A DNA stretch of 64,000 nt from the sequence record MW822008.1; one strand, written 5' to 3'. The position numbers and the translations under genes were made by a program. Below are positions 14,934 to 56,715 of this stretch, piece after piece. The stretch's first letter is position 1, and each line of letters opens with the position of its first letter. The notes beneath the pieces are model-generated. The model was given only the letters and a program-made list of their open reading frames with translations, did no database searches and had not been told where the DNA came from. The stretch comes from Escherichia phage BF17.

Positions 14934-14961
14934 TTGACAACGCCGAATGATGTGTTATAAT
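14934..14961 (+). promoter_or_regulatory. sigma70-type promoter P1 (TTGACA-N16-TGnTATAAT)
   Basis: TTGACA 14934-14939, TATAAT 14956-14961 with TG extended -10. Confidence 0.7.
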
Positions 14962-15025: not shown

Positions 15026-15053
15026 TTGACAAGCCTGAACGATGTGATATAAT
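15026..15053 (+). promoter_or_regulatory. sigma70-type promoter P2, tandem duplicate of P1
   Basis: TTGACA 15026-15031, TATAAT 15048-15053; ~40-bp block GTTGACAA...GATGTG.TATAATGACCAC repeated 92 bp apart. Confidence 0.7.
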
Positions 15054-15224: not shown

Positions 15225-16553
15225 ATGTCTACTCAAAACAACGATATCCTGAACGTAAAACTGACTCCTAAGAAAGCTAAAGAAGCAATGGCACTGGCTG
15301 ACATGATTCAAGATAGCCTGATGATTTGGGGTAGCCCTGGTATCGGTAAATCTGCTATCGCACGTCAATACGCTGATGAGAACTACCCACTGCGTAAAGA
15401 TAACGTGGCAAAAATTGAGTTCATGAAACAACAAATCGAAGCTGATACTGAAAATGCTGATCAACTTCGCCGTGAACTGGCAGCGTTTGAAGCCAAACTA
15501 ATCGACCAAGACACTAACTTTATCGATTTCCGTTTGTCTCAGATTGAACCAAGTGACCTTCGCGGTATTCCAGTTCCAGAGAAAGTGTTCCTTGATATGG
15601 ATGGTAAGCAACTGATTGAATCTGAACTGGCTAGTGCACAAGATTACATCGCTGAAACAGCAGTTGTGTGGGCAGCACCTAAAGTACTGAAACTGTCTCC
15701 AGATTGGAAAGGTGTTATTCTGTTTGACGAAATCAACTCTGCAATGCCGATTGTACAGGCAGCGTCTTATCAGCTAATCCTCGACCGTTGTGTTGGTGAG
15801 ATGAAGCTACCTAAGACTGCACTGATTCTCGCAGCAGGTAACCGTGAAACTGATGGCGGTGTAACGTTCTCTCTAGCTACACCACTGCGTGACCGTATGA
15901 CCCACATCGAAATGATTCCTTATCATCAAGATTGGATTAACGATTATGCGATTGGTAAGCGTTTGAACCCAGCAACTGTAGCGTTCATCAACAACACTGG
16001 TGCTAAACACTTCAACACCCTTAGCCCACAAGATCCTTCTCACTGTGGTGGTACTTCTCCACGTTCATGGGAAGCAGTAGCACGCTACGAAGATCTGAAG
16101 AAAGTTAAGAACATTGATAAAGAAGTGTTCCGTGCGATGATTGCAGGTCGTGTTGGTGAAGGCGTAGCAACTGAATACATCGAGTATGTTGATAACGTAG
16201 CTAAACTACCAGATACCATGTCCATCCTACAGGGTGAGATTAAAGAGATTGATGCTTCGCTTGATATTTCCGCGAACTACTTCATCACTCTGAATCTGGT
16301 TTACAAAATTATCGACCTCTACAATGAGAAGCAAGAACAACGTCTACCAGTGGAAGATTGGGGTAAGCTGTGCAACAACTTCATCACCTTCCTAGACCAT
16401 AACTTCTCTGCAACTCAAGCAGAACTGGCAGTACTGGCGATTCGTACCATCACGCTTCATAAAGTAGCGATTACGATTAAAGATGTACCAGCGTTTAAAG
16501 ACTTCGTTATGAAGTACTCTGACCTAGTACGTAAAGCACGCTCTCTTGGTTAA
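15225..16553 (+). CDS. MoxR-type AAA+ ATPase (AAA_5 / CbbQ-NorQ-CobS-like)
   Basis: Walker A GSPGIGKS, Walker B VILFDEINSA, AAGN and TPLRDRM motifs; single AAA module; AAGGA RBS. Confidence 0.75.
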   Translation: MSTQNNDILNVKLTPKKAKEAMALADMIQDSLMIWGSPGIGKSAIARQYADENYPLRKDNVAKIEFMKQQIEADTENADQLRRELAAFEAKLIDQDTNFIDFRLSQIEPSDLRGIPVPEKVFLDMDGKQLIESELASAQDYIAETAVVWAAPKVLKLSPDWKGVILFDEINSAMPIVQAASYQLILDRCVGEMKLPKTALILAAGNRETDGGVTFSLATPLRDRMTHIEMIPYHQDWINDYAIGKRLNPATVAFINNTGAKHFNTLSPQDPSHCGGTSPRSWEAVARYEDLKKVKNIDKEVFRAMIAGRVGEGVATEYIEYVDNVAKLPDTMSILQGEIKEIDASLDISANYFITLNLVYKIIDLYNEKQEQRLPVEDWGKLCNNFITFLDHNFSATQAELAVLAIRTITLHKVAITIKDVPAFKDFVMKYSDLVRKARSLG

Positions 16554-41446: not shown

Positions 41447-42790
41447 TTATTTGTCAGTGAAAGTTATTTTCCAATACCCCTGGCGATATACCGACATAAT
41501 ACTCTTATGCCATTTGAATTTGTCATTATATCTATAATATCCACTATCTTCCATATTATAAACATAGTTGTGTACTAGTGATGGTTCAATAAGTTCTGCT
41601 CCATCATTGGTAATTTTAAACAAATAGTTCGCTGGGATTTCAGTCTCTTTGTAAATGATGTTATGTATGCTATTATTTACATAATATTGTTCAGGTAGTG
41701 CGTTATATAACAAAGAGCCTTTACTAATGAATCCATGTATTGTATAATCAACAGTATAATTACTATTATCAAGCTGAACTACAATCTTGTTAGCATCAAC
41801 CCCTTCACCAAATGAAGAGATATGTCCTTTTAGTGGGTTATCCTCTTCTATAGCTTGTTGGAATTTAATACCTACAGTCTTGTCTTCATATTCTGGGTCC
41901 AAGTACTTAAGGTATTTTTCCCATGAATAAATCCCACCATTTGGTGATGTTTCTGATAGTGATTGACTAACAAGAGTAAGTTGGTAAGTATCTGGTATAT
42001 TAAGTTCAGAGTTTGTTATTTCATCAACTTTAATACATAAGTTCTTTGGTGTGAACACATCAGTAATGATATCGGAGTAATTACCAATTTCAAAATCAAG
42101 TTCATCACGAGCACCTTTAATATTGGTGGTGATTTGTTGGATAAGTTTTGGTTTCTCAACAATAGCTGGCAAAGAGAACCAAATTGTGGTTTCAAATGTC
42201 AATACCATTATATCCAAATCACTATCGGTTCCTTGTGGGAAACCACGAGTAGTAAATTGACAGTCAATCAACTCCACATCACTCAATGATGTCCAATCCA
42301 ATGGGTTCTCGGAGAGTTGTAATTGAATACTAGGAGCAAACAATGTTGAAATTTGCTCAAATAGTTCCATTTTAGTTTGTGTTTGTGTAACCCAAATATT
42401 AACATCAAACGTAAATGTCCAAGGTACTGGGTTATGACGAGTTACTTTATACTGTTTATCTAAGTCTTTAGTATATTCGTTAATTCCAGGGGACTTGTTA
42501 GTCCCCATAACTAATGTTTCATTTGCGTTTGAACGAACTGACTTGCGATCTAGTTTAAGTTGGTTTACACTAATGGTCATGATTGGTGCTGTTGGAAGCA
42601 CGTTCTCACTGTTACCATTAATAATTGCTGCTGCCATACGTGAAATATCTGCATAGCGGCAAGGAACTTTCTTATATTTTGGTTTTCCGTCAGCATCAAC
42701 ACCATTTTGTACTTGAAATTCACCAAACACTCTGATAAGATGTTTCAGTACTCGACGAAATTGACCATCATAATAATAATCTATTTTCAT
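41447..42790 (-). CDS. hypothetical virion protein
   Basis: 447-aa ORF; start overlaps upstream stop (ATGA). Confidence 0.45.
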   Translation of the reverse strand: MKIDYYYDGQFRRVLKHLIRVFGEFQVQNGVDADGKPKYKKVPCRYADISRMAAAIINGNSENVLPTAPIMTISVNQLKLDRKSVRSNANETLVMGTNKSPGINEYTKDLDKQYKVTRHNPVPWTFTFDVNIWVTQTQTKMELFEQISTLFAPSIQLQLSENPLDWTSLSDVELIDCQFTTRGFPQGTDSDLDIMVLTFETTIWFSLPAIVEKPKLIQQITTNIKGARDELDFEIGNYSDIITDVFTPKNLCIKVDEITNSELNIPDTYQLTLVSQSLSETSPNGGIYSWEKYLKYLDPEYEDKTVGIKFQQAIEEDNPLKGHISSFGEGVDANKIVVQLDNSNYTVDYTIHGFISKGSLLYNALPEQYYVNNSIHNIIYKETEIPANYLFKITNDGAELIEPSLVHNYVYNMEDSGYYRYNDKFKWHKSIMSVYRQGYWKITFTDK

Positions 42791-44295
42791 TCTGAATCCT
42801 TATGTATACGATACACTGTATTAGGTTTAACTGCATCATGTAATGGTACACGGTTCGGGCTATTAACAAATTCTGTTAGAGCAAGATCTGCACCTTCCCA
42901 CGGTTTTCTACCACCGTAATCGAAAATCACCCAAGAATTCTTGGACGCACTGTATTCCCATAGGGTTACTGGTGTATAATCGGTACGATAGTAGTAATCA
43001 CCATCAACTGCATCACTTGGGAACATGTTACCTTCAGGAACTGTACCTCGTGCTGGAGGAATCTTAGGACGATAATCTTGTTGTGAATCGATATTTCCAT
43101 AAACACTATTAGAAGTGAATGGGTCATTAACGTAAGTTACTTCTGGTTCTCCCCATTTACCATTTAAGTACTGATAAATGTGTGGTTCTTTGTATTCAAT
43201 ATAAAAATCATCAACCCCTTGTGGCGGTGTGCTTTCTGTAGTACACTCAACATCACAATTTAGCCACTTTTTGGCAGATTTGTCGTATTGATACAATGAG
43301 AAGCCAGTAACATCAGCCTCGTTTTCTTTAAAGAAGAAGTCACCATCCATCGGTTTGCGAGGAAAGATGGTTCCACGCTTGACTTCCACAGAAATCCATG
43401 TATCATTAGATAGTTCTTTCAGTACTGGGTAAGTTTTCTTGAGGAAATACATTTTATTTGCTGGTTCCTCTGGTAATTCGTATCCATTTAGCATATACTT
43501 AGACAAATCAACAGTATCTGGTCTGTCATCGAACAAGTGTTCGTTAGTAAAATGAATGTATGGTACTTCATCATCAGCTTGCATAATGATACGGTTCATA
43601 ATATCCATTTCATTACCATAGCTGCTGTTCTCTGAAGAGCCATCATCAGTATTACCATTGCCGTTGTTTGGATCATCTGGGTCATCAGGGTAGTTATTGT
43701 TACCTAGAAGGTCAGAGTACTCTGGTGAATCAGTAAGAGGTTTAACACGGAGTTTGTAAATGTGATGTTGCCATGTAACTGAGTAACCTTCTGACGTTCT
43801 AAACCCATCTTGTACTACATAGAAGCGGTTTAAACCAGAATCTTTACCAAGTACATCAAAATCACGTAAGTTAGGAAGTTCGATTACGTCACCTGGCATA
43901 ATTTTTCTTCCCAAACGCTGAATCATTGTGTTATAATGAATTGTGATGTCCATTGTGTTAAAATTGAAGAACAATCCTGGGATTTTCAAGTCAGGTGTTG
44001 CTTCTTGGACTTGGTAGACGCAACTTAAGGTGATAGCTTCGAGATTATAGTTACGGCTTGGAGTGTCCCCAAAAATTAAATCACCAATGCTTGACACAAC
44101 GGTACTATCTGATCCATAATAATCACCGCCGTATGATAAATCAGTGTTGTCAGCGACTTGTTTTGGTCCGACATAGGCATAAAGCCACATGTCAACACCA
44201 CCGATGTTGTATTGTTCTGCTATGGCAGAGTCAATGAACTTGTAATCATTGGTTCTACCTTTTTTCCACATTCTGTATGCCATGTTTGTCTCCAA
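42787..44295 (-). CDS. hypothetical virion protein
   Basis: 502-aa ORF with GGAGA RBS, divergent from the ClpA-like gene. Confidence 0.45.
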   Translation of the reverse strand: METNMAYRMWKKGRTNDYKFIDSAIAEQYNIGGVDMWLYAYVGPKQVADNTDLSYGGDYYGSDSTVVSSIGDLIFGDTPSRNYNLEAITLSCVYQVQEATPDLKIPGLFFNFNTMDITIHYNTMIQRLGRKIMPGDVIELPNLRDFDVLGKDSGLNRFYVVQDGFRTSEGYSVTWQHHIYKLRVKPLTDSPEYSDLLGNNNYPDDPDDPNNGNGNTDDGSSENSSYGNEMDIMNRIIMQADDEVPYIHFTNEHLFDDRPDTVDLSKYMLNGYELPEEPANKMYFLKKTYPVLKELSNDTWISVEVKRGTIFPRKPMDGDFFFKENEADVTGFSLYQYDKSAKKWLNCDVECTTESTPPQGVDDFYIEYKEPHIYQYLNGKWGEPEVTYVNDPFTSNSVYGNIDSQQDYRPKIPPARGTVPEGNMFPSDAVDGDYYYRTDYTPVTLWEYSASKNSWVIFDYGGRKPWEGADLALTEFVNSPNRVPLHDAVKPNTVYRIHKDSE

Positions 44296-44325: not shown

Positions 44326-44353
44326 TTGACAAACGCAAAGAATGTGATATAAT
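44326..44353 (+). promoter_or_regulatory. sigma70-type promoter (TTGACA-N16-TGnTATAAT) for ClpA-like gene
   Basis: TTGACA 44326-44331, TGTGATATAAT 44343-44353; same architecture as P1/P2. Confidence 0.7.
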
Positions 44354-44391
44354 GTTTATTAATTAGAGTGACTACTCATTTAGGAGAATAC

Positions 44392-46680
44392 ATGAATCTT
44401 ACCCAATTGTTCAAAAAAAGCGACGAACTGGCAACTTCTCTGGGTCATACCTTCTTGACTATTGACCATCTAAGTGCTACAGTACTGACAATCGATAGCA
44501 TCAAAGCAGTGTTTGAGGATATGAACATCGATGCAGAGAAACTACACGGTCGTTTGATTGCATATCTGAAAAATACAGCATTCCCACATGCACCTAAAAG
44601 TGCTGATGGTGATGAAGCGAACCGCACATCACTTCTTGTGAACCGTGTAGTTCAGGAACTTTCTAAGAAATCAGTAATTGAGCAACTTAAACGTGATGAT
44701 TTCTCAATTGATGCTTATTTTGTACTGTTTGAGTGTTTGTCCTTCCCAAATACTGCACTAGAAGCAGCATTGCGTGAAGAGGGTATCACTTGTACTGAAG
44801 CAGCACGAACTCTTCAGAAGCACGTAGAAGCAATCGACAACGGAATTAACCTTCAAAGCATTAGTGATGAACCAACTGGGGAGAAAAAAGTGGCACAACA
44901 GCAACCATCGTCCAAACAAAAAGGTTTAGAAGATTACACCACTAACCTAACCGCACTTGCAAAAGAAGGTAAACTTGACCCAATGATTGGTCGCCAGAAA
45001 GAGCTTTCTGCACTGATTGAAACTCTGGCCCGTAAGACTAAGAAAAATGCTATCCTGACTGGTGAAGCTGGTGTTGGTAAAACGCAAATTATTGATGGTC
45101 TAGCACAGGCAATCGCTGATGGTGAAGTACCAGAGCATCTTAAAGATGTTGAAATTCTGTCTCTGAACGTAGGTGCACTGACTGCTGGTACTAAGTACCG
45201 TGGTGAGTTCGAAGAACGTATCGATAACCTACTAAAAGAACTGAAGAAACGTGAAAACACTATTGTGTTCATCGATGAAATCCATATTATGGTTGGTGCT
45301 GGTTCAGCAAGCAACGGTTCTATGGATATGAGCAACATGCTCAAACCTGCACTATCTCGTGGTGAGATTCGTGTAATCGGTGCAACAACTTACGATGAAT
45401 ATCGTAAAAACATCGAAAAAGATAGTGCACTAACTCGTCGTTTCATGAAAATTGATGTAGTTGAGCCAACAATTGATGAAACCCGTGCGATTGTGAATGG
45501 TTTGAAATCTACTTATGAAACTTTCCATAACGTAGAGTTCAGTACTGAAGCAATGGATGCAGTTATTACACTAAGTGATAAGTTCCTGAAGAACAAACAC
45601 TTCCCTGACAAAGCAATCGACCTAATGGATGCGGCAGCAGCGAAAGTACGTTCTCGTGAAACTGATGATAACATCATCACTGTTGCACTGATTCAAGAAG
45701 TTGTTGCAGGTATCGCAAACCTAGATATTAACGTGGTTGCTTGCACTGAAAGTGAACGTATGCGTAATCTACCAGATGCACTCCGTTCTCGTGTATACGG
45801 TCAAGAAGAAGCAGTACAGAAACTGGTTGATAACGTGATGGTAGCTCGTGCTGGTCTGCGTGATAAATCAAGTGTTCAAGGTGCATTCATGTTTGTTGGG
45901 CCATCTGGTACTGGTAAAACTGAAATTACCAAAGCACTGGCTGATGCAACTGGTTCTGAACTGATTCGTTTCGATATGTCCGAGTTTTCACAGGAACATA
46001 CTGTTGCTAAACTGATTGGTTCACCTCCAGGCTATGTTGGTCACGATTCTGGTAACGGTCTGCTACTCGACAAGATTGAGCAGTTCCCGAATGCAGTACT
46101 GTTGCTTGATGAAATCGAAAAAGCTGATCGTAAAGTACTACTAACCTTCCTACAGGTTCTGGACGAAGGACGTTTGACTGGTTCACAAGGTAAAACTGTT
46201 TACTTCAATAACGTAACTGTTATTATGACAACTAACCTTGGTGCAGCAGATTCAACCAAGCGTAGTATTGGGATGAGCGGTAGTGACACAGCACAAGATA
46301 AAGCGATTAAAGCATTCTTGCCACCTGAATTCATCAACCGTATCGATAGTATTGTGACATTCAAAGACCTAAGCAGCGAAGCGATTGACAGCATCATTGA
46401 TAAGTTCATGGGAAGTTTGAATGAACAAATCAAAGACCGCAAAGTTAAAGTTTCACTGACCAAAGCGGCACGTGAGTGGTTGGCAACAAATGGTGTTAAA
46501 GTTGGGATGGGTGCACGTCCAATGAAACGCACTATTGAGCAAAACATCCGTGTCCCACTAGCTAAAGAGATGTTGTGTGGTTCTCTGGTTAATGGTGGTA
46601 ACGTAACGTTTGATGTGATTGATGGTAAATTGGCTATCAAACCTAAACGAACTAAAGCAGTAGAAAAAGTTATTGCGTAA
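44392..46680 (+). CDS. ClpA-like two-ring AAA+ unfoldase (Clp/Hsp100 family)
   Basis: D1 Walker A GEAGVGKT and B IVFIDEIH; D2 Walker A GPSGTGKT and B LLLDEIE; sensor GARPMKR; no ClpB middle domain; SIGMSG loop where ClpA has IGL; ATG 44392 with TAGGAG RBS (track starts at GTG 44368). Confidence 0.8.
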   Translation: MNLTQLFKKSDELATSLGHTFLTIDHLSATVLTIDSIKAVFEDMNIDAEKLHGRLIAYLKNTAFPHAPKSADGDEANRTSLLVNRVVQELSKKSVIEQLKRDDFSIDAYFVLFECLSFPNTALEAALREEGITCTEAARTLQKHVEAIDNGINLQSISDEPTGEKKVAQQQPSSKQKGLEDYTTNLTALAKEGKLDPMIGRQKELSALIETLARKTKKNAILTGEAGVGKTQIIDGLAQAIADGEVPEHLKDVEILSLNVGALTAGTKYRGEFEERIDNLLKELKKRENTIVFIDEIHIMVGAGSASNGSMDMSNMLKPALSRGEIRVIGATTYDEYRKNIEKDSALTRRFMKIDVVEPTIDETRAIVNGLKSTYETFHNVEFSTEAMDAVITLSDKFLKNKHFPDKAIDLMDAAAAKVRSRETDDNIITVALIQEVVAGIANLDINVVACTESERMRNLPDALRSRVYGQEEAVQKLVDNVMVARAGLRDKSSVQGAFMFVGPSGTGKTEITKALADATGSELIRFDMSEFSQEHTVAKLIGSPPGYVGHDSGNGLLLDKIEQFPNAVLLLDEIEKADRKVLLTFLQVLDEGRLTGSQGKTVYFNNVTVIMTTNLGAADSTKRSIGMSGSDTAQDKAIKAFLPPEFINRIDSIVTFKDLSSEAIDSIIDKFMGSLNEQIKDRKVKVSLTKAAREWLATNGVKVGMGARPMKRTIEQNIRVPLAKEMLCGSLVNGGNVTFDVIDGKLAIKPKRTKAVEKVIA

Positions 46681-46712
46681 AAAAGAAAAGGAGAGCAAAT
46701 GCTCTCCTTTTT
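46681..46712. terminator. bidirectional intrinsic terminator
   Basis: GGAGAGC-AAAT-GCTCTCC flanked by A-run and T5. Confidence 0.75.
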
Positions 46713-46713
46713 G

Positions 46714-49700
46714 TTATTTAACTTCTAATAGATTTTTAATGTCATTACCACTTATTTGCAAACTATCGGAGTAAACAGATAGTTCGATTGGATAACTGTT
46801 AACACTATAACGTTTTAGTAAATTAACTTTACCTAAGTTCAAGCCATTAAATGAATATGTCACATTCTCTTTAAAGTCGTGTTCTGCACTATACATTACC
46901 CCACGGAGTAAGTTATTTGCAAAACGTACTTCAACTTTTTCAAAACCAAGAGAAATAATATCATTCATACTTGCACCAGCACCAGATAGAACATTATTAG
47001 TAACACTATATGGACTAACTGAATCTGGTTGTGAAACATAAGTAGCATTTTCTTCACTGATAGCAGTAATGTTAGTTACTGTTCCACCAACTACACCAAT
47101 ATATGTATCACTAACTAGTGGATATGCATATTCCCATACCCCGTCAGCATTCAGTACTGGTTGAATAATACCAACATCATACTCGAACACGTTAATTTCC
47201 ACACTATCAGTCATTTTGGTTCTCACTAACTCACTAAGAACACCTGCACCAGTAATTGGTAAGTTATATCCGTTATCAATGGTAACACCATCAACTTCAA
47301 ATATCTCGTTAGACACTACCCAAACATCAACGTCATCTGGTGTAATTCCATCATTATAAGAACCACCGTATAGTGTTGTGTCGTAGAATACTTCATAGTT
47401 CATTGCGTCGATAGCATAATTTCTATTTGTTTCATACAACTTAACACCATCAACCAAGAATTCTGGATCAGCAAAGGTTCTAATACGAACGATGTTCAAT
47501 GCTAGAGGTATTGCTGGTTCATTCTGTTGTTGTTTAGTGATGTTATCATAACGAAGCACAACTCCAGTACTATCTAGTAGTTCTACAGTTCCGTTCGCAG
47601 TGTTTCTTACTGTGTACAAGGTTGGTGTGGTGTCAGTTTTGATTTTTGATACACTCAAGATGGTTTCCCATGCATTGTTTTGGTATCTCACATAATCTTC
47701 ACCATCAGTTGTGAATATCATAACCTTATCACCATCAGATAGGGTATTGTCAATTACTTCAGCTTCTGTATCACTAACAATTGATTTAATTTTATAGAAG
47801 TATTTTTCATCATACTTACTGTATGATTTACTAATATCATTTTCAATCTTAGCGTAAGAAGGAATACTAACAATTGCTTCTGTTGTTTTATAAGGGTTGA
47901 TAATAACCATACCTTCAGTTTTATATCTACTATTGTCTCTCAATTGAACTAGTGAAACACTATTGAATCCATAACCATCAACTGTGAAGCGAATCTGACC
48001 AATCTTTCTTCCTGATGGGTTAATATCAGAAATGTCGATTATGTACGGATCTACTTCGTCACCTTCAACTTCCCATTTTAACTCGGAAGTTTGTGATTCA
48101 AGTGCTAGGTTATCAAATGCATTCATATCATCGTAGTACTTAGCATCGGTGATGCTATCTAGGATGTGCTGATAATCACTGTACATTGGGTTATTTCTAT
48201 CAAGAGGTAAGTCATCAAGATTTATTTCTGCCAATTGAACTAGTTGACCGTCAGTTATGAATTTGTCTTCCATGAAATCATCAATGCTTTGGTCATCTGG
48301 GATACTCTCGTATACACCATTAACATTAACATAAACATATTTTCGTGGCATCATAGTAAATGCATGAATATCAATAGGCATTCTACTTAGTATTTCTTCA
48401 GCCTTTTCATAATGGTCGGTAGCATCTTTGTCATACAAACCACGCATACCGGACAATACATGAATTGCGTCATTGTAGAATCGTTGATTTCCATTTTCAT
48501 CTACATGGCGATATGAATAAACACCATATTCAACTTCAAGTATAATTCTAACTTCATCATCAGTTGCAGTAGTATTGTTTTCTTTAATTAAAGAAACATA
48601 CTTATTATACAACTCACTACTAACTTCAAAGTAACCAAAGTTATAATCAGTACTGGATGCATAACCAAACGGTAGTCTGGTACTTGGATTATCATCATAG
48701 GTTAACCCACTAAATCCACATCCAACCTCATCATGAATTACTTCATCATCTGCACCTGTGTACAATTTCAAACGGTTAGAGAGTGTGTTATACTGAACAT
48801 AATGATTTACGTCATTAAACATTTCATTTTGTGTTGATTCTTTATATACACGATTCAACGTTTCTGTGAATTCTGCGGTTGCTACCAAATCATCTGCATG
48901 GTCTGCATACCATTGGTTAACACCGTAAGCAATCCCTAGAGTTACGTTCAATTCTGGGTAATACAATTGCATCTGATAAGCAACCAATAGGTCGAAATCT
49001 TCATCACTGTATTCTGGGAATGTATATTTGTAACGTTGTAATTCAAAATTACTAACAACATCTTGTGCATTAGATTGATATTTCTTATTCACTTCTTCCA
49101 ATACATCAACACTTGCCAAATTATCATTTGGTTTACATTGAGTGTTGTCGTAGTGCATGATAACATCAATTTCTTGGAAACGGCGATTAGGTGTTACGAA
49201 ATCACTTGGCAATTCACCAACTTGCTCCCAACGTTGAGTTACCTCATTGAATTGAGCATATTCATAATCCCAAATGTCTTTTTCCGTTTTAACCCAAGTC
49301 CCATCTGCAAATATATAGCCATTAGGATCTAAATCATTACACAAACCTTTAATTAAATCATCATCTGAAGTTTTCTGTTCAATCTGGGAACGAATCTTAG
49401 TTCTATATGGTTTAACTTCTTCAAAGTACTCAACGATTTGATTAATCAAGTTGTCGTTGGAATAGTTCTGTACTAATGATTGTTCTAAACCTACAATATA
49501 AATGTAAGATGTTTTGAATACCCAATCAACAACGCTTTGTTCTACGTGAACATACTTAACCATATCAAACACAATTTCACTCTGATGTAAGTCGAATGAG
49601 TTCTTCAATAAAGCTAGTGCTTTACGAACGTTAATCTCACGATTACTCAACGAACCATTAGCATCACGAACTGTATAGTCAGCGTATAACATATCATTCA

Positions 49701-52700
49701 ATTCAACTGTACTATTTTCACGACCAATTGCTTTCCAGTAAACTGAATCACGTGATTGTGCTTTAATGTACAATGTCCAGATGCCATCAACATCTGTAAT
49801 TCTGATAATGTCACCAACTTGATAGTTCTTAGTGTTTGCATCTTCTAGGCTGGATTCTTGTGTATATGCAGTATTTTTATCGTATCCAATATCATACCAA
49901 TCTGCTAGTGACCAGTACTGGGTCATGTCCAATGAAGTTCCTAGTGCTTCAACATAGTCTGATTGTTTAATCATTTTCTGTTGACCTTCACCACGGTTTT
50001 CCAATGTAATGGTAACCACACTACCAGCACTTGATGGACTATTCATTAGATGAATATAACCATTAGCATCAATATGCACAAAATATACAGAGCTAGTTGA
50101 TAGTGGGGTAGGTAATACACCACTAGTACTTACTAGTACTGCGTCGTTTTCTTTGAACTTGTCACTTTCAGGTGCAATGACTAATTCACTATTGTAAGTT
50201 AGCACACGATATGATACTTCATTCGGGTTAACTTCAGTAGTTTTAACATTAAACACTTCGTCCATTAGAACAGTGTTAGTTGTTATATTCTGTGAGCGAT
50301 AATAGTTATTTGCACTTTCTACAAAGTTTCTACGAGCTTCAATTACATCTTGGAACCAAGTCTTATTAGAACCTAAACCGTTTGGTACTAAAGGATATAG
50401 TAAATCAATAACAGTTCCTGATTCAGTAGTTTCTTGACCAATCATAGAATTCCACATAGAAGTCCAGATTGATGGATTGAAGTTATAGCTATCACCTTCT
50501 TTACATAATTGATACTGGTCATGTTTAATAACTTCAGTATTATCCATGTAATAAGAAACAGTTAAAATACTTGTGTCATCGTTGACTTCAAATTGCATAT
50601 TACTTAGAATGAACGAGCTTTCATTGATTGGTGCAAACCAAGGAATGTTAAGCTGTGCTGGTTCTTTAATAATACGAGCAATATCAGTACAAGATTTAGT
50701 TCTGGAATGTAATGGTGGTACATAAATTGTATCACGAACCCAGAAATAGTATTTTGTAACATAAGTATCAGTTGTGCTATCATATTCTAAGAACGTACTA
50801 TAATTATCTTCCAATGCGGTTCCGCTTGGTAGGTACATAGTGTTGTTTTTATTTTTGTTAGCAACGTCTTTACAGTATTTGTCCCAGTTATATGGTTCAA
50901 CTGGTGAACATACCCATTCAAGAACATCAACAGTACTGTGCGGTAACAATCTACCCCAGTTATAACGTTTATATTCATTTGTTGCATCAACATCCACATT
51001 ACCGTCAGCATCATAGATTGCACGAGTGTAATCTAAGTAGAAAGCAGTGCTGGTGTTCCACCAAACCTGACCAACTTTATCAGCACCCCATGCTTGAATC
51101 AATTCACCATTGCTGTTGTATTGTGCTGGGTCAACTGGAGATGTGTAGGTAACGTTCTGCATCGCTGCACCAGGAATAACACCGTTGATTGGGTCAAACA
51201 CGTTTAGGTACAACGCAGTAATGTTAGTACGTTCATCATATGTAGTTGGACGGTCAAACAAAGTACTTTGTGGAGCTTTAAAACTATATTTTCTGTCAAT
51301 GTATTCCTGACGCATCTCTTCAGTACTGAATCGTGAAACATAACGATACAAGCGTGGGCGAGTATCAGGATCAGTGAAGTCAATAGTGATTGAAGTGTCA
51401 AACGGAACTACCATAACTCTAGGGTCATTACCCGCAGTATAATATTGACTTTCTATAGTCAATGTATCTGGCATAAAGTTAGTTTCATCAACAAAGTAAT
51501 AATAATCACCATCATTTAGTGGGATATCATCACTTAGAGTTACTTTACAGAATTGTTCTGCATATACATCGGTATTTTCAATTGGAACGATAGAGAGCAT
51601 CTCAACTTCAGTGTCTACTAGTTCGAAAATATTCCACAAATCATTACCATCTTTAAACATCCATACAGAATCTGGGATTTCACCACTGTTATTCATATAA
51701 TTGATACGATCATTATATGCAGTACTGAAATCTTTAGTAACGTATGAAATTTCATCTAGTGTTACAGGACCAATGTCTGGAAGTTGGATATTCTCACTTC
51801 TTCCACTACGCATTGGGAATGAAAACTTACCATTTGGACGAGTAATCCAGCGTGAGTCAACCCCTTGTTCACCGTAATAAACAATACCATTACCAGTACC
51901 ATTTGATGTAGCATTAACATCAAACGAAACCATCTGTGGTTGTTGTTTAAATTGGTCATTGATTAGTTTAAATTGTAGATTTTTCTTACCATTGATATTA
52001 CCATAAGTACCAATCTTAAATGCCCATTCCTGAAGTGCTTTATATTCATCAGTGTCGTAAGATTTAGAAACGCGTAGTACTTTTTCCATTACTTGGTTAG
52101 TACCTTTGTCATGAATGAATCCTTTATAGAAATCAACACGACTAACATCACTACTAATCATACGTTGTAGATAATCACGAGTTTGATAGCCAATCAAGTG
52201 ATTTGATAACTCTTGAAGCTGAACATCACTCACAGGAGTTTCACTATTATAATATAATTCAAAATCAGTTACTAATTTTTCAAATGATGGTAAAGTTCCT
52301 GCTTCTAGGATAATGAAACCAGGTGCTTGTAGGCGACCAGTCCATGACCCAGTAATGTAACCATACATTTTAATCAATTCTTGAATAGCACCATAAGTTG
52401 GTTGGTAAATGTAATCACCAAAGATAGTTTTATCATCAAAAACAACTGCGTGTTCATATGAACTTAGGCTCAAACGAATCAACGCCATACGTTTTTGTGA
52501 TTCAGATGTAGTTCTCACTGTGAATACGTTACCGATACGCGAAGTTTCGATTTCATATTGACGGATGCCTTGGTTTTCATCATCGAGTAGTGACCAAACA
52601 CCACCACTATTCTGTGTAACAGATTGAACTGAACCAAAATCCGCACCAAATTTAGCATTAGCTGCACTTGGAGTACAGGAGATGAACTCACCAGTACTTA

Positions 52701-55700
52701 AATTATTCTGACTCCAAATAACAAAGTCTTTAGCAATAGTTGTCCAGTCTTGTTGAGTACCACTATCATTTACATCTTCAAAAATCCAGCCATGTTCTTT
52801 TAGATATTCACCATATCCACAAATGAAAGTATAAACTTCTTGGTATGTATTGAATATTTTACCATATTCTAATGTACCTTCAGATTTCCATTCATTGTAA
52901 TGAACAACAGTTCTGTCTTCCAATTTAAGAGTTACTTTTCTTCCATTTTTAACTGGAATTTTATATTTAAATTTAGCACCAACTAAATCATAACCATCAA
53001 TTTGATATGCACTACCATTCCAAGTAATTTTTACTGCACTCATTTGCTCATCGCGAATGTTATTGGAACGAACTAGACCGATAGTTTGGTTTTCTTGTGA
53101 AATCAAACCGAAAGATTTAGCAGTGAATGTCAATTGGTCTGCTTTAGTAAAGCCACCAATTTTGTGAGCGACATTGACATAAGAAGAACGAACAACGTCA
53201 CCGTATTTGGTGGTAATGTTCTTATTCTGATACATCAAATAGTCACTAACAAACATTTGATAACCGATAGTACGGGTGTTTTTCTCACCATGTACTAATG
53301 TAGTACTGTCAAAGTTTAGACGCTTACGGGTTTCACCATAAAGGAACTGTGAACCATCAGTATAAACTGGTTTAAGGTTATCATTACGGGTATCCCAGTA
53401 ATAGTTTGCAAACTGTGCTGGTTTTGCTTTGTATAGAAGAAGCATTTGGTCATAAGCAAACATCGCAGTGTTCATGTAAGTGAATTCCATGTCACCCATG
53501 TCACCATAAGACCACGGTTCTGCACGATGATCTAAATTACCACTAACAAGACCTAAAACTTCAGGTGCAATATACTCAACTTCACAAATATCAATACCAG
53601 TACTGGTTTTCTCGCCAGTCTTAGTGATTTTAAATGGCTGTACACCGAAACGCTTGTATTTGTCATATTGACCACGGCGTTCACCTGACAAAATAGTACC
53701 AGTACTGCTATCACCGATAGTACCATCAATATCCCACAATCCACTTGGGACCAAATCACCATTTTCATTCATTACTAGTGCTTCATACACATAAACAACA
53801 TCACCCTCACGTTCACCAACTTGAACTGCGGTTGGTTCGTATTCTTGGTTCCACCAAGTAGGACGTTGAGAGAAGCCCATCATTTCCCACGGATGGGTTG
53901 CTGGACGATATGTGCCATATTGGTCAGTATAGATTGCACGCCATGAACCACGAGCAGGAATTTCAGTACGTTGACCATCAACAACATAATAACTACCAGT
54001 ATAGTTCCAAGTTCTCCAGTTATTTGCATCATAATCATGAGTACTGTTACTAATGCCATTGGTTGCTGTGAAGTTAATGTAACCACGTAGTAATAGAGTT
54101 TTCTTTTCTTCTGCACTATAATCAGTACCAGTGAAATATGGAGTTGGGAATAGGTCTTCACTGTTTAGTACTGGTTTATAATCAATATCCTTGAAAGTAA
54201 GATCAATACTATTAAAGATACGATTTTCCAATTCAAAAACTACGTCATCCATTTTATCAACACCATTGATAACACGGTATGCTTTTGAAATAATACCAGT
54301 ATGACTGATATTATAACAGCTAGATTTACTACCAGCAGTTAAGAATGTTGCTTTTTGTGGTGTATAAGCTTGCAAAATACCCAAGAACTGTGGAGTTGGT
54401 GGGACAAATGCACGAATAAACCCAGCAGTGCTTGCAACGTTGTCATAGTAGAATGGGAATGTACTATCACGTCCCATATTAATAGCTGTTAGAATCGCAT
54501 CTACGATGTTTGATGCACTATTACCAAGAAAAGCACTTGGGTCTTCTTCATACAAACGAAGCATTTGAGTGTTGAACTTGTTAATGAAGCGGAAGTATTC
54601 TGCTTGCATAAACATGATTGATTCAAACAAATCAATATCTTCATTAGCGGTATGTGCCATTAGTGGTAACATGGACGCTTCGTTTTGAATAATTTTAGTG
54701 CCTACACCATTATTAACCAAACCAGCAGCCAAACGTTCTTCGTAATTGTTAAAGTCATCAGCAGAACCAGATGTAATATTCTTTTGAATAATATCTTGGA
54801 AGTGCAGGGTGTAATCACCTTGGTTGATGTATTCAATGTTTGAATTATATGGGTTATTTTGTAGATTAATTGGAACTTCATATGCACCCAACTCTTTATT
54901 AGGAGTGATAGTGCTACTATAAGTTCTGATTTGTACAACAGAATCTTCATCCAAATCAACAGAGCTATCAATTGTAATACTTTGTACTTGATTATTAACT
55001 ACAGTTTTTGTGTATTCTTTTATTTCCACACCATCAACAACTAGTTCGATAATATCATCAGAATTATCTAGTACTTTTTGTGCCAATTCAAATGTATGAT
55101 TGTACTTAACGCTTTGTACCCCATCACCAACGATAACATGCCAATCAAGATATGTTTCACGTTCTGCTTTGTAATATTGATAAGTTCTGTCAACTTCAAT
55201 TACATAAGCATACATTCCTTCAACTGGGTCTTTGAAACTTTCCATGTCATAAACAGTACTGAACACGCGGAACATTACTGTACGTTCAACCTGTGGAGTT
55301 TGTTTAACATATTGTTTGGAGTATTCAGTACTACGAACCCAATCAGTTTCTAGGTTCATTGTATTACCTTCACCAATTACGTTATAGTAATATAGTCCAT
55401 CAATTTCAACTTCCACACCCAAATGCTCGTAAGTATAACGAGTTGATTGTAGGAAATTCTCATATGTGTAATAATTGTAATCACCTAGTTCAATATTATA
55501 ACCATAAACGCTATCAGTTGCATAATTATAGTTAATTTTAAAACCAAATAGTGAAGAACCAGTAAAAGTACTTGATGGATAGGTAGTAGTGTTGTTTAGT
55601 TTAACACCATTACGGTCATACAATTGGAATTGTGGAAATACGTTCACAGAAGTTTTAGACTGTGCTTGAATCCAATGAGAACCGTCCCAATACATGGAAC

Positions 55701-56715
55701 TGTTACCAAATTCATTACCTTTGATAATAAGAACTACGTCACCATCTTGTGGTTCACCACTCGGACGGCTTTCAGATTCTTCGTCTGGATCTAATGCTAG
55801 ACCATACACACGTGTTCCATCTTGCATACGTTTAACATATACTTTATAAATTCGGTTGTTTTCACCATTGTTACCAATACTGGTGAAAAGAATACGCATA
55901 CCATCTTGTGGAATAATACCATCAATACGTATACCGCTGTTAATATCTTTTTGTACGATATCTTCAGGTTTAATAATATCAGAGAACAAATCAACTGTCC
56001 CACGGAATTTAGTACCGTAGTTCATTAGTTCGATATTTTTATTGTATTCGATAATTGGTGCACGAGCACGAACAAAACGGGAATCTTGCATTAGTTCTTC
56101 AGTTAGGATAGTACCATCTTCTAAAGTTTCACCTAATGTGTACCAGAAGTTTTGTAGTGACCAAGTGTTACCATTTTCTGCACCACGTTCCATTACAATA
56201 TAATCTGGAGTTGTGATATTATAGCTATTCTTGGAATCCCATAGGTATGAACTGTAGTTGTTCATTTTATTTGGGTTAATTGGTGGGGTCCATGAATAGA
56301 ACTTACCATTAAACAAACGGCTTTCATTTTCGGTTAGTGCACCGTAATGATTCATATAGCCAACTAGATCATCATAAAATTGAATTGAACGAATGCTGGA
56401 GTCATCATTTCTTGAGACATACGCAGTGGACAACTGATATAGTTGACGTGCGACTGTTGACTCGTGTAAGAAGATGTTCCCTGCTGCTGCCGGAGAACCC
56501 ATGTCACCAATGTAGCCGTCAACTAATTCGTTTTCAGCCGGATTAAACCATTGTTGGATAACATCATCACTGACTTTCTGAATATCTTCTAAGCCTTGCA
56601 TCCACTCAGGCAATCTTTTTATGAAAAGCTTCTTCTGTACTGCTTCAGCCATCTGTGTAGGTTGAAACTTAAAATTATTAGTCATTTTTGGACTCCATAT
56701 AATTCGTTCATTCAT
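46714..56715 (-). CDS. giant virion protein (3333 aa), putative baseplate or fibre-associated
   Basis: Single uninterrupted 10-kb ORF downstream of gp6-like gene; alternative start at 56685 (MTNNF) has GGAG RBS. Confidence 0.65.
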   Translation of the reverse strand: MNERIIWSPKMTNNFKFQPTQMAEAVQKKLFIKRLPEWMQGLEDIQKVSDDVIQQWFNPAENELVDGYIGDMGSPAAAGNIFLHESTVARQLYQLSTAYVSRNDDSSIRSIQFYDDLVGYMNHYGALTENESRLFNGKFYSWTPPINPNKMNNYSSYLWDSKNSYNITTPDYIVMERGAENGNTWSLQNFWYTLGETLEDGTILTEELMQDSRFVRARAPIIEYNKNIELMNYGTKFRGTVDLFSDIIKPEDIVQKDINSGIRIDGIIPQDGMRILFTSIGNNGENNRIYKVYVKRMQDGTRVYGLALDPDEESESRPSGEPQDGDVVLIIKGNEFGNSSMYWDGSHWIQAQSKTSVNVFPQFQLYDRNGVKLNNTTTYPSSTFTGSSLFGFKINYNYATDSVYGYNIELGDYNYYTYENFLQSTRYTYEHLGVEVEIDGLYYYNVIGEGNTMNLETDWVRSTEYSKQYVKQTPQVERTVMFRVFSTVYDMESFKDPVEGMYAYVIEVDRTYQYYKAERETYLDWHVIVGDGVQSVKYNHTFELAQKVLDNSDDIIELVVDGVEIKEYTKTVVNNQVQSITIDSSVDLDEDSVVQIRTYSSTITPNKELGAYEVPINLQNNPYNSNIEYINQGDYTLHFQDIIQKNITSGSADDFNNYEERLAAGLVNNGVGTKIIQNEASMLPLMAHTANEDIDLFESIMFMQAEYFRFINKFNTQMLRLYEEDPSAFLGNSASNIVDAILTAINMGRDSTFPFYYDNVASTAGFIRAFVPPTPQFLGILQAYTPQKATFLTAGSKSSCYNISHTGIISKAYRVINGVDKMDDVVFELENRIFNSIDLTFKDIDYKPVLNSEDLFPTPYFTGTDYSAEEKKTLLLRGYINFTATNGISNSTHDYDANNWRTWNYTGSYYVVDGQRTEIPARGSWRAIYTDQYGTYRPATHPWEMMGFSQRPTWWNQEYEPTAVQVGEREGDVVYVYEALVMNENGDLVPSGLWDIDGTIGDSSTGTILSGERRGQYDKYKRFGVQPFKITKTGEKTSTGIDICEVEYIAPEVLGLVSGNLDHRAEPWSYGDMGDMEFTYMNTAMFAYDQMLLLYKAKPAQFANYYWDTRNDNLKPVYTDGSQFLYGETRKRLNFDSTTLVHGEKNTRTIGYQMFVSDYLMYQNKNITTKYGDVVRSSYVNVAHKIGGFTKADQLTFTAKSFGLISQENQTIGLVRSNNIRDEQMSAVKITWNGSAYQIDGYDLVGAKFKYKIPVKNGRKVTLKLEDRTVVHYNEWKSEGTLEYGKIFNTYQEVYTFICGYGEYLKEHGWIFEDVNDSGTQQDWTTIAKDFVIWSQNNLSTGEFISCTPSAANAKFGADFGSVQSVTQNSGGVWSLLDDENQGIRQYEIETSRIGNVFTVRTTSESQKRMALIRLSLSSYEHAVVFDDKTIFGDYIYQPTYGAIQELIKMYGYITGSWTGRLQAPGFIILEAGTLPSFEKLVTDFELYYNSETPVSDVQLQELSNHLIGYQTRDYLQRMISSDVSRVDFYKGFIHDKGTNQVMEKVLRVSKSYDTDEYKALQEWAFKIGTYGNINGKKNLQFKLINDQFKQQPQMVSFDVNATSNGTGNGIVYYGEQGVDSRWITRPNGKFSFPMRSGRSENIQLPDIGPVTLDEISYVTKDFSTAYNDRINYMNNSGEIPDSVWMFKDGNDLWNIFELVDTEVEMLSIVPIENTDVYAEQFCKVTLSDDIPLNDGDYYYFVDETNFMPDTLTIESQYYTAGNDPRVMVVPFDTSITIDFTDPDTRPRLYRYVSRFSTEEMRQEYIDRKYSFKAPQSTLFDRPTTYDERTNITALYLNVFDPINGVIPGAAMQNVTYTSPVDPAQYNSNGELIQAWGADKVGQVWWNTSTAFYLDYTRAIYDADGNVDVDATNEYKRYNWGRLLPHSTVDVLEWVCSPVEPYNWDKYCKDVANKNKNNTMYLPSGTALEDNYSTFLEYDSTTDTYVTKYYFWVRDTIYVPPLHSRTKSCTDIARIIKEPAQLNIPWFAPINESSFILSNMQFEVNDDTSILTVSYYMDNTEVIKHDQYQLCKEGDSYNFNPSIWTSMWNSMIGQETTESGTVIDLLYPLVPNGLGSNKTWFQDVIEARRNFVESANNYYRSQNITTNTVLMDEVFNVKTTEVNPNEVSYRVLTYNSELVIAPESDKFKENDAVLVSTSGVLPTPLSTSSVYFVHIDANGYIHLMNSPSSAGSVVTITLENRGEGQQKMIKQSDYVEALGTSLDMTQYWSLADWYDIGYDKNTAYTQESSLEDANTKNYQVGDIIRITDVDGIWTLYIKAQSRDSVYWKAIGRENSTVELNDMLYADYTVRDANGSLSNREINVRKALALLKNSFDLHQSEIVFDMVKYVHVEQSVVDWVFKTSYIYIVGLEQSLVQNYSNDNLINQIVEYFEEVKPYRTKIRSQIEQKTSDDDLIKGLCNDLDPNGYIFADGTWVKTEKDIWDYEYAQFNEVTQRWEQVGELPSDFVTPNRRFQEIDVIMHYDNTQCKPNDNLASVDVLEEVNKKYQSNAQDVVSNFELQRYKYTFPEYSDEDFDLLVAYQMQLYYPELNVTLGIAYGVNQWYADHADDLVATAEFTETLNRVYKESTQNEMFNDVNHYVQYNTLSNRLKLYTGADDEVIHDEVGCGFSGLTYDDNPSTRLPFGYASSTDYNFGYFEVSSELYNKYVSLIKENNTTATDDEVRIILEVEYGVYSYRHVDENGNQRFYNDAIHVLSGMRGLYDKDATDHYEKAEEILSRMPIDIHAFTMMPRKYVYVNVNGVYESIPDDQSIDDFMEDKFITDGQLVQLAEINLDDLPLDRNNPMYSDYQHILDSITDAKYYDDMNAFDNLALESQTSELKWEVEGDEVDPYIIDISDINPSGRKIGQIRFTVDGYGFNSVSLVQLRDNSRYKTEGMVIINPYKTTEAIVSIPSYAKIENDISKSYSKYDEKYFYKIKSIVSDTEAEVIDNTLSDGDKVMIFTTDGEDYVRYQNNAWETILSVSKIKTDTTPTLYTVRNTANGTVELLDSTGVVLRYDNITKQQQNEPAIPLALNIVRIRTFADPEFLVDGVKLYETNRNYAIDAMNYEVFYDTTLYGGSYNDGITPDDVDVWVVSNEIFEVDGVTIDNGYNLPITGAGVLSELVRTKMTDSVEINVFEYDVGIIQPVLNADGVWEYAYPLVSDTYIGVVGGTVTNITAISEENATYVSQPDSVSPYSVTNNVLSGAGASMNDIISLGFEKVEVRFANNLLRGVMYSAEHDFKENVTYSFNGLNLGKVNLLKRYSVNSYPIELSVYSDSLQISGNDIKNLLEVK

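Follow-up and report, generated by a model that had tools for sequence, protein, structure and literature searches.

An intact ClpA-family unfoldase gene with an early-type promoter in the baseplate region of an Asteriusvirus jumbo phage, and its possible place in a phage-encoded Clp system

In a 64,000-nucleotide stretch of the Escherichia phage BF17 genome (MW822008.1; hereafter the window), the segment from 44326 to 46712 carries a single plus-strand gene, clpA, predicted to encode a double-ring AAA+ unfoldase of the ClpA family. The one long plus-strand open reading frame (ORF) of the segment is listed from a GTG at 44368 to 46680 (770 amino acids, aa). The true start is almost certainly the ATG at 44392, five bases past an AGGAGA, and the resulting 762-aa product is 100% identical to database cluster P0001 and equal in length to the annotated coding sequence (CDS) of phage vB_Ec-M-J. 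The features of the locus are as follows.

44326–44353, plus strand: sigma-70-type promoter, with TTGACA at 44326–44331, a 16-nucleotide (nt) spacer and the extended −10 element TGaTATAAT at 44345–44353 (consensus match)
44381–44386, plus strand: Shine-Dalgarno sequence AGGAGA, 5 nt ahead of ATG 44392 (sequence inspection)
44392–46680, plus strand: CDS of the 762-aa ClpA-family double-ring AAA+ unfoldase, stop included (matches to TIGR02639, PHROG 4871 and 1ksf)
44392–44841, plus strand: N-terminal domain, aa 1–150, divergent Clp_N-type with eight helices (Clp_N match, ClpA alignment from residue 17, AlphaFold2)
44842–44925, plus strand: flexible linker, approximately aa 151–178 (low predicted local distance difference test score, pLDDT; gapped and variable in alignments)
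45052–45678, plus strand: D1 AAA+ core and lid, aa 221–429, with Walker A GEAGVGKT, pore loop KYRG, Walker B IVFIDEIH and arginine fingers RRF (Pfam)
45880–46353, plus strand: D2 AAA+ large domain, aa 497–654, with Walker A GPSGTGKT, pore loop GYVG, Walker B LLLDEIE and arginine finger NR (AAA_2)
46267–46275, plus strand: I626-G627-M628, positional equivalent of E. coli ClpA I617-G618-L619 (bracketed alignment)
46370–46608, plus strand: D2 small domain, aa 660–739, with sensor-2 GARPMKR (ClpB_D2-small; GARPM.R invariant)
46685–46712, both strands: bidirectional intrinsic terminator, common to clpA and the convergent gene for a 3333-aa protein (terminator scan and RNA fold)

The initial annotation of this locus, made by a model from the letters alone, had assigned the full ClpA architecture to the product, and profile searches bear this out. 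All of the motifs that it named (GEAGVGKT, IVFIDEIH, GPSGTGKT, LLLDEIE, GARPMKR and TKRSIGMSGSD) are found in the translation, and Pfam recovers AAA (D1), AAA_lid_9, AAA_2 (D2, 167.5 bits) and ClpB_D2-small (76.8 bits). Clp_N is barely over its cut-off on the N-terminal 199 aa (21.6 versus 20.7 bits) and matches through its first repeat only (aa 11–59); the N-domain is strongly diverged, with a mean column entropy of 1.5 versus 0.61 in the D2 large domain. The best NCBIfam family is ClpA (TIGR02639, 752.1 bits, model positions 4–733 of 734), but the protein misses the ClpA equivalog cut-offs (752.1 versus 993.15 bits for TIGR02639 and 646.4 versus 1350 for PRK11034). In the PDB search, the best match is E. 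coli ClpA (1ksf), which aligns in a single stretch (residues 17–741 against 20–734, 595 bits, 41% identity), whereas the matches to chains of ClpB, ClpC and Hsp104 are split into two stretches. Because ClpA aligns in one uninterrupted stretch and the other motors in two, the phage protein has no middle (M) domain, in agreement with the initial annotation.

The motor itself is highly conserved. Its ATPase and pore motifs are invariant across 40 aligned sequences of 38–100% identity, and the pore loops KYRG (D1) and GYVG (D2), the arginine fingers and sensor-2 do not vary in the phage clade or in bacterial ClpAs. An AlphaFold2 model computed with 40 homologues as input (mean pLDDT 78.6) has eight helices in aa 1–150, with block pLDDT values of 56–89, and two disordered segments, the N–D1 linker at 157–175 (pLDDT <50) and residues 624–630, which form the IGM loop. 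A Foldseek search with this model returns ClpC and ClpA chains, with 46–48% identity to E. coli ClpA D1–D2 and target-length-normalised TM-scores of 0.76–0.84. By profile, alignment and model, the double-ring AAA+ motor of the phage protein is complete, its N-domain is of a divergent Clp_N type, and an M-domain is missing.

The phage protein shares with E. coli ClpA (1ksf, 1r6b, 6uqo, 7uiv) the order N-domain, D1, D2 and D2-small without an M-domain, as well as a loop, predicted to be flexible, that carries a hydrophobic–Gly–hydrophobic tripeptide at the IGL position. It differs in its diverged N-domain, in reading IGM-S for IGL-I, in a loop that is 2–4 residues shorter and in scoring below the equivalog cut-offs, and its gene resides in a virulent jumbo phage behind an early-type promoter. 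ClpB, ClpV (TssH) and ClpC are also two-ring Hsp100 motors of the superfamily and give strong matches, but they do so in two stretches, consistent with their extra middle domain. ClpB and ClpV lack a ClpP-docking loop, whereas the phage protein keeps the loop and has no M-domain.

The initial annotation had aligned TKRSIGMSGSD by eye with the IGL region of E. coli ClpA. This alignment is confirmed: IGM (aa 626–628) pairs unambiguously with I617-G618-L619 and is bracketed by the invariant motifs MTTN..G and PEFxNRxD. Set against the docking-loop pattern [I/L/M/V]-G-[F/L], the phage loop is homologous and predicted to be flexible, reads IGM-S, and is variable in the clade. In a survey of 112 cluster representatives of the phage clade, the tripeptide is IGM in 16, MGM in 16, IGV in 11, LGM and IGA in 9 each, LGL and MSM in 8 each, IGG and MNM in 5 each and VGF in 4, with rarer forms such as LGH and TAI in 16 further representatives. 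LGL is the form in 121Q-type phages, IGV in RaK2, LGM in GAP32 and CBB, and MNM in PHA46 and 7t3-type phages; the seven bacterial ClpAs in the set read IGF, MGF or IGL. A hydrophobic residue is kept at position 3 in 95 of the 112 representatives and at position 1 in all but 3. Among the Rak2-like orthologues (121Q gp581, RaK2 ORF069, GAP32_229 and CBB gp235), which are 60–99% identical and share genomic position and promoter type, the tripeptide is the only notable difference. In the PHA46 record (PP191103.1, 207551–209824; L016:301–2574), the ClpA-like ORF with the MNM tripeptide is intact, with no internal stop, and has no CDS in GenBank.

The window is, by its nucleotide matches, from an Asteriusvirus, within the Rak2-like jumbo myoviruses of 350–385 kb. 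The 2.6-kb clpA region is 99% identical to that of Escherichia phages WPEC5, EC.P1 and fEgEco12, and 98–99% identical to that of TH47, Turkey3, vB_Ec-M-J, Ecwhy_1, WPEC3 and CMSTMSU. Compared with the subgroup of 121Q, PBECO4, G17 and phAPEC6, nucleotide identity is 84.4–84.7% and protein identity is 92.6%; this difference between the two Asteriusvirus subgroups (∼84.5% versus 92.6%) indicates purifying selection. The phage clade is continuous from 100% down to 54% identity, followed by bacterial ClpA at 38–45%, with E. coli ClpA at 41%. As judged from these comparisons, the phage ClpA is an ancient phage lineage under purifying selection.

We considered whether clpA could instead have been acquired recently from the host as a passenger, or could stem from a chimeric assembly, as might be suggested by the NCBI name of cluster P0001, "AAA family ATPase [Escherichia coli]". 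The sequences labeled E. coli are whole phage genomes of 350–378 kb, however, and the protein is only 41% identical to E. coli ClpA, in place of the near-identity to a host clpA that the initial annotation had named as the sign of such an origin. A megablast search of clpA against 5,426 complete E. coli genomes gave no match, the GC fraction of the gene (0.41) is near that of the rest of the window (0.35–0.42), and its slot and promoter are kept in three phage genera at 60–75% protein identity. The low identity, the missing match in E. coli genomes and the conserved synteny rule out a recent host origin or chimera, to which we assign a negligible probability.

Dozens of Rak2-like phage genomes, 121Q among them, already carry the gene annotated as "ClpA-like protein" or as a Clp ATP-binding subunit, and the protein matches PHROG 4871, a phage 'ATP-dependent protease' family, from end to end (E = 0, 1019.3 bits, residues 9–764 against profile positions 10–761 of 764). 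Attai et al. (PMC6102473) mention jumbo-phage ClpA, and Iyer et al. 2021 (PMC7824862) name the ClpA and ClpX of jumbo phages as candidates for a translocase or assembly factor. The literature was searched for an experimentally characterised phage ClpA or ClpP, and nothing relevant was found. In the literature searched, no phage ClpA appears to have been characterised by experiment. To judge by these records, the gene is real and intact but known at the annotation level, as a conserved core gene of the RaK2/121Q giant coliphages.

The promoter ahead of clpA matches the consensus at 12 of 12 positions and has TG at −15/−14, and the terminator hairpin scores on both strands, so that the private promoter and bidirectional terminator proposed in the initial annotation are both upheld. 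The RNA fold of the terminator has a free energy of −18 kcal/mol (z = −5.99), and none of 200 shuffles was equally stable. Only three perfect extended promoters occur in the 64-kb window, that of clpA among them, and a longer string, aTGTGnTATAATG, is common to all three, which suggests one phage early-promoter class. The other two perfect TTGACA-16-TGnTATAAT promoters stand in tandem at 14934–14961 and 15026–15053 (+), upstream of an ORF at 15225–16553 for a 442-aa AAA+ ATPase (PHROG 1297), which is followed by a gene of the PHROG 1314 'HNH endonuclease' family. The corresponding promoters of the orthologues read TTGACA-18-TGaTATAAT in RaK2 and TTGGAA-18-TGcTATAAT in CBB; at the level of these motifs, the extended −10 sigma-70 promoter of clpA is conserved across three phage genera.

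The placement among virion genes described in the initial annotation is likewise borne out. clpA is a lone opposite-strand gene between genes for a 498-aa virion protein (42787–44283, −) and a 3333-aa virion protein (46714–56715, −); this pair is surrounded by genes for sheath completion and for the baseplate wedge and hub. The same slot is found in Asteriusvirus, Mimasvirus CBB, Alcyoneusvirus RaK2 and Salmonella phage PHA46, with a virion protein of ∼500 aa beside a sheath-completion-like gene on one side and a virion protein of 3326–3340 aa, followed by wedge and hub genes, on the other. The 3333-aa protein is kept in size and position in CBB (gp236, detected in the virion) and RaK2 (ORF070).

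The CBB paper associates early genes with RpoD-like promoters and late structural genes with an ATAAATA motif. An (A)TAAATA motif that matches the late motif proposed for CBB and GAP32 occurs 24–67 nt upstream of several virion operon leaders in the window, among them the genes starting at 22559(−), 38708(+), 44283(−), 60227(−) and 61229(−). No (A)TAAATA-like motif was found before clpA, although one is present before its divergent neighbor at 44283(−). A late promoter of the T4 type, TATAAATA, was also considered and rejected, as it is depleted on both strands of the window (1 found versus 6.55 expected). In the CBB virion proteome (PMC5259590), the flanking gp234 and gp236 were detected and the ClpA-like gp235 was not; similarly, the PA5oct ClpA gene record is without the 'ESI-MS/MS' (electrospray ionization tandem mass spectrometry) note borne by its neighbors. 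Because of the early-type promoter, the missing late motif and the absence from the CBB and PA5oct virion proteomes, we infer that host RNA polymerase transcribes clpA early and that the product is not part of the virion, although the gene is set inside a late structural module.

A ClpP homologue is encoded by the same group of phages (CBB gp104, RaK2_00489, 121Q gp464, EcMJ_201 of vB_Ec-M-J and a PHA46 orthologue; 64–90% identical to the CBB protein). The EcMJ_201 gene lies outside the window, at L009:3953–4648 of vB_Ec-M-J, with orthologues at L007:2779–3471, L010:21917–22594 and in L011–L015. These proteins match Pfam CLP_protease with 138–143 bits, keep the catalytic triad S97, H122 and D171 intact in 10 of 10 sequences and have a conserved C-terminal extension of ∼20 aa. 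The clpP gene sits among genes for DNA ligase, a phosphoesterase and dCMP deaminase, 87–95 kb from clpA. Overall identity of the Asteriusvirus ClpP to E. coli ClpP is 34%, and of the 14 residues that form the IGL pocket of E. coli ClpP, as taken from the ClpAP structure paper (10.1101/820209), it keeps 2; the changes include Y60T, F82S, L114G, F112L and A52S. By alignment, the would-be ClpA–ClpP interface is therefore diverged from the E. coli pair on both faces, with IGM-S versus IGL-I on one and 2 of 14 pocket residues on the other. Across eight paired genomes, the ClpA tripeptide and the ClpP pocket show clade-level trends only, such as M92L and F82C in PHA46, and these are confounded by phylogeny.

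RefSeq and PHROG label the phage ClpP as a head-maturation protease. We rejected head maturation as its sole role because CBB has a T4 gp21-type Peptidase_S77 in its head module, between the portal and capsid genes, and because clpP is found with ligase and nucleotide-metabolism genes; the phage ClpP is probably not the prohead protease. A second protein of vB_Ec-M-J annotated 'head maturation protease', EcMJ_208 (L009:7583–8191), matches the ClpP fold very weakly (Pfam CLP_protease, 20.6 bits), has a hydrophobic N-terminus and seems closer to proteins of the NfeD or SppA type that bear a signal peptide.

These phages also carry a ClpS-like protein of 177–181 aa. It occurs in 71 Rak2-like records, whose host genera match those of the phages with ClpA-like and ClpP-like genes. 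It has a long N-terminal extension, and its gene adjoins an IF3-like gene; 121Q gp48 is annotated as a ClpS adaptor, and other examples are EcMJ_400 of vB_Ec-M-J (L018:1489–2034) and GAP32_314 (L017:1321–1854). The GAP32 protein matches Pfam ClpS with 41.8 bits. A tblastn search with E. coli ClpS did not find the Asteriusvirus gene, which was found with the GAP32 homologue as query. The N-degron pocket motif is partly degenerate, LLDDPTTSAEFV compared with VNDDYTPMEFV, and H66 is replaced by Asn.

About 70 records carry a ClpA-like protein of at least 60% identity, and ClpP-like proteins are found in the same jumbo phages of Escherichia, Klebsiella, Salmonella, Erwinia, Yersinia, Cronobacter, Pectobacterium, Xanthomonas and Serratia. 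More distant phages show the same combination: the PA5oct-like phages account for 11 Pseudomonas records in each of the ClpA, ClpP and ClpS searches, and the Atu_ph07 and Phosso phages carry all three proteins. Going by these homology searches, ClpA, a phage ClpP and a ClpS-like protein co-occur in three jumbo-phage lineages. The ClpAs of the PA5oct-like phages (MIJ3, and EST35_0298 of PA5oct) and of Atu_ph07 and Phosso are ∼40% identical to the BF17 protein, and that of PA5oct is likewise non-virion. The docking loop, which was read in MIJ3 and Phosso, is a canonical IGF in both, and the ClpP of PA5oct and of Atu_ph07 is closer to E. coli in its pocket (6 and 10 of 14 residues, compared with 2 of 14 in Asteriusvirus). 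In the PA5oct-like phages, Phosso and Atu_ph07, the ClpA gene also lies just downstream of a DnaJ-like gene, whereas none lies beside the Rak2-like clpA. The dnaJ–clpA loci are at L004:8284–11202 in MIJ3, L021:2425–5343 in PA5oct and L005:7530–11292 in Phosso, the last with a peptide deformylase gene between the two.

The reading that we favor, with a probability of roughly 0.5, is that the phage ClpA acts as the early, non-virion unfoldase arm of a phage-encoded Clp system together with the phage ClpP. In such a system, clpA would be transcribed early by unmodified host RNA polymerase, and a ClpA hexamer would thread substrate proteins through its pore and most probably feed a ClpP peptidase, for which the phage's own ClpP would be the more parsimonious partner. 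The remodelled pocket of the phage ClpP would receive the flexible hydrophobic–Gly–hydrophobic loop (IGM), and the ClpS-like protein may serve as an adaptor through the divergent N-domain. Candidate substrates would include host proteins, phage regulators and misfolded or excess virion subunits.

A number of observations weigh against this reading. Within the D2 large domain, the columns of L619 and I617 are at the 97th and 91st percentiles of entropy, Gly is replaced in 19 of the 112 surveyed representatives, and Ala or Gly occupies position 3 in 16; such variability is unexpected for an obligatory ClpP interface. The shortened phage loop reads IGM-S-G and is without counterparts of I620 and H621, of which the first also reaches into the pocket and the second forms polar contacts in the E. 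coli ClpAP complex (10.1101/820209). PHA46, which has the MNM tripeptide, keeps both its clpA and its clpP ORFs intact. The clpA, clpP and clpS-like genes are dispersed and form no operon, the Asteriusvirus ClpS-like protein by itself fails Pfam ClpS and is recognisable only via its GAP32 homologue, and the early timing is read from promoter sequence alone. Finally, mass spectrometry of CBB virions (PMC5259590, Table 4) detected the ClpP-like protein, by one peptide with 4.5% coverage, in a preparation from which the ClpA-like protein was absent, and the PA5oct ClpP-like EST35_0272 (L019) carries the 'ESI-MS/MS' note. The presence of the ClpP-like but not the ClpA-like protein in virion preparations of these two unrelated jumbo phages means that the phage ClpP may have a separate particle-associated role. 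This detection, which may reflect packaging or co-purification, keeps some doubt on the role of the phage ClpP.

The initial annotation had proposed a different partner, suggesting that the phage ClpA could dock via IGM onto host ClpP and turn host proteolysis to other targets, defence proteins for instance. In this model, the phage ClpA would take the place of the usual specificity factor on the ClpP tetradecamer of the host. The position of IGM at the IGL site agrees with this proposal, Met is chemically close to Leu, and E. coli ClpP accepts both the IGF of ClpX and the IGL of ClpA (10.1101/820209). LGL is the form in the 121Q subgroup, IGL or IGF occurs in some members of the clade, and an early-type promoter would fit a role in host takeover. 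Host docking is not the most parsimonious explanation, however, because a ClpP homologue that keeps its catalytic triad and a ClpS-like protein are both encoded by the phages themselves, in genes that lie beyond the window and that the initial annotation overlooks. Moreover, the short phage loop lacks two residues that contact ClpP in the E. coli complex, and the tripeptide drifts to IGV, IGA, IGG and MNM across phages of enterobacteria with near-identical ClpP, which is hard to reconcile with selection for one host pocket. We therefore regard docking onto host ClpP as unlikely, although the part of the proposal that concerns the position of IGM stands. A ClpP-independent activity is also conceivable, in which the protein is an unfoldase or remodelling chaperone for giant or aggregation-prone phage proteins, such as the 3333-aa protein and the fibres, or for complexes, and the loop is a decaying relic. 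The tripeptide is under relaxed constraint and the motor does not vary, as this would predict, and E. coli ClpA alone remodels RepA (10.1101/820209); translocase or assembly roles are those suggested by Iyer et al. (PMC7824862). The gene always lies in the tail/baseplate module beside a virion protein of ∼3330 aa (Asteriusvirus, Alcyoneusvirus, Mimasvirus and PHA46), and in the PA5oct-like phages, Phosso and Atu_ph07 the DnaJ-like gene ahead of clpA would supply a co-chaperone. On the other hand, positions 1 and 3 of the tripeptide largely stay hydrophobic, the loop is retained rather than deleted as in ClpB and ClpV, and ClpP and ClpS co-occur with ClpA in all three lineages. A sigma-70-type early promoter would also be odd for an assembly role when the neighboring virion genes have late-type motifs. 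We give this chaperone role a fairly low probability. Its narrower form in the initial annotation, a dedicated unfoldase for the 3333-aa protein, is not sustained, being based on an adjacency that is kept within the Rak2-like group: BLASTP finds no similarity between the 3333-aa protein and the 2236-aa tail protein beside clpA in MIJ3 (E = 0.44). Deep conservation of ClpA beside one giant-protein family was accordingly rejected, as the Rak2-like and PA5oct-like giants are not homologous by BLASTP.

An early unfoldase working with the phage ClpP, the reading that we prefer, can be extended to a more specific and more tentative proposal, in which the Rak2-like phages would possess a self-contained, orthogonal ClpS–ClpA–ClpP machine whose docking interface, a hydrophobic–Gly–Met loop facing a ClpP pocket with 2 of the 14 E. 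coli residues, would have co-diverged from that of the host, so that the unfoldase and the peptidase pair with each other and not with host ClpP, ClpX or ClpA. We hold this proposal as a possibility of fairly low probability. As a sequence feature, clpA is ordinary, since the exact protein is public, annotated and in a recognised phage protein family. The comparative data nevertheless make the idea of a private protease directly testable: the tripeptide varies, the ClpP pocket is remodelled, the promoter is of the early type and ClpA is absent from virions. If true, an orthogonal machine would give these phages a private early protease with which to reshape the host proteome or clear away defence proteins, and a candidate for host takeover or anti-defence, and would provide a natural orthogonal unfoldase–peptidase pair for engineering. 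A phage-private protease of this kind would stand as a clear example of the import of an entire regulated-proteolysis system by a virus.

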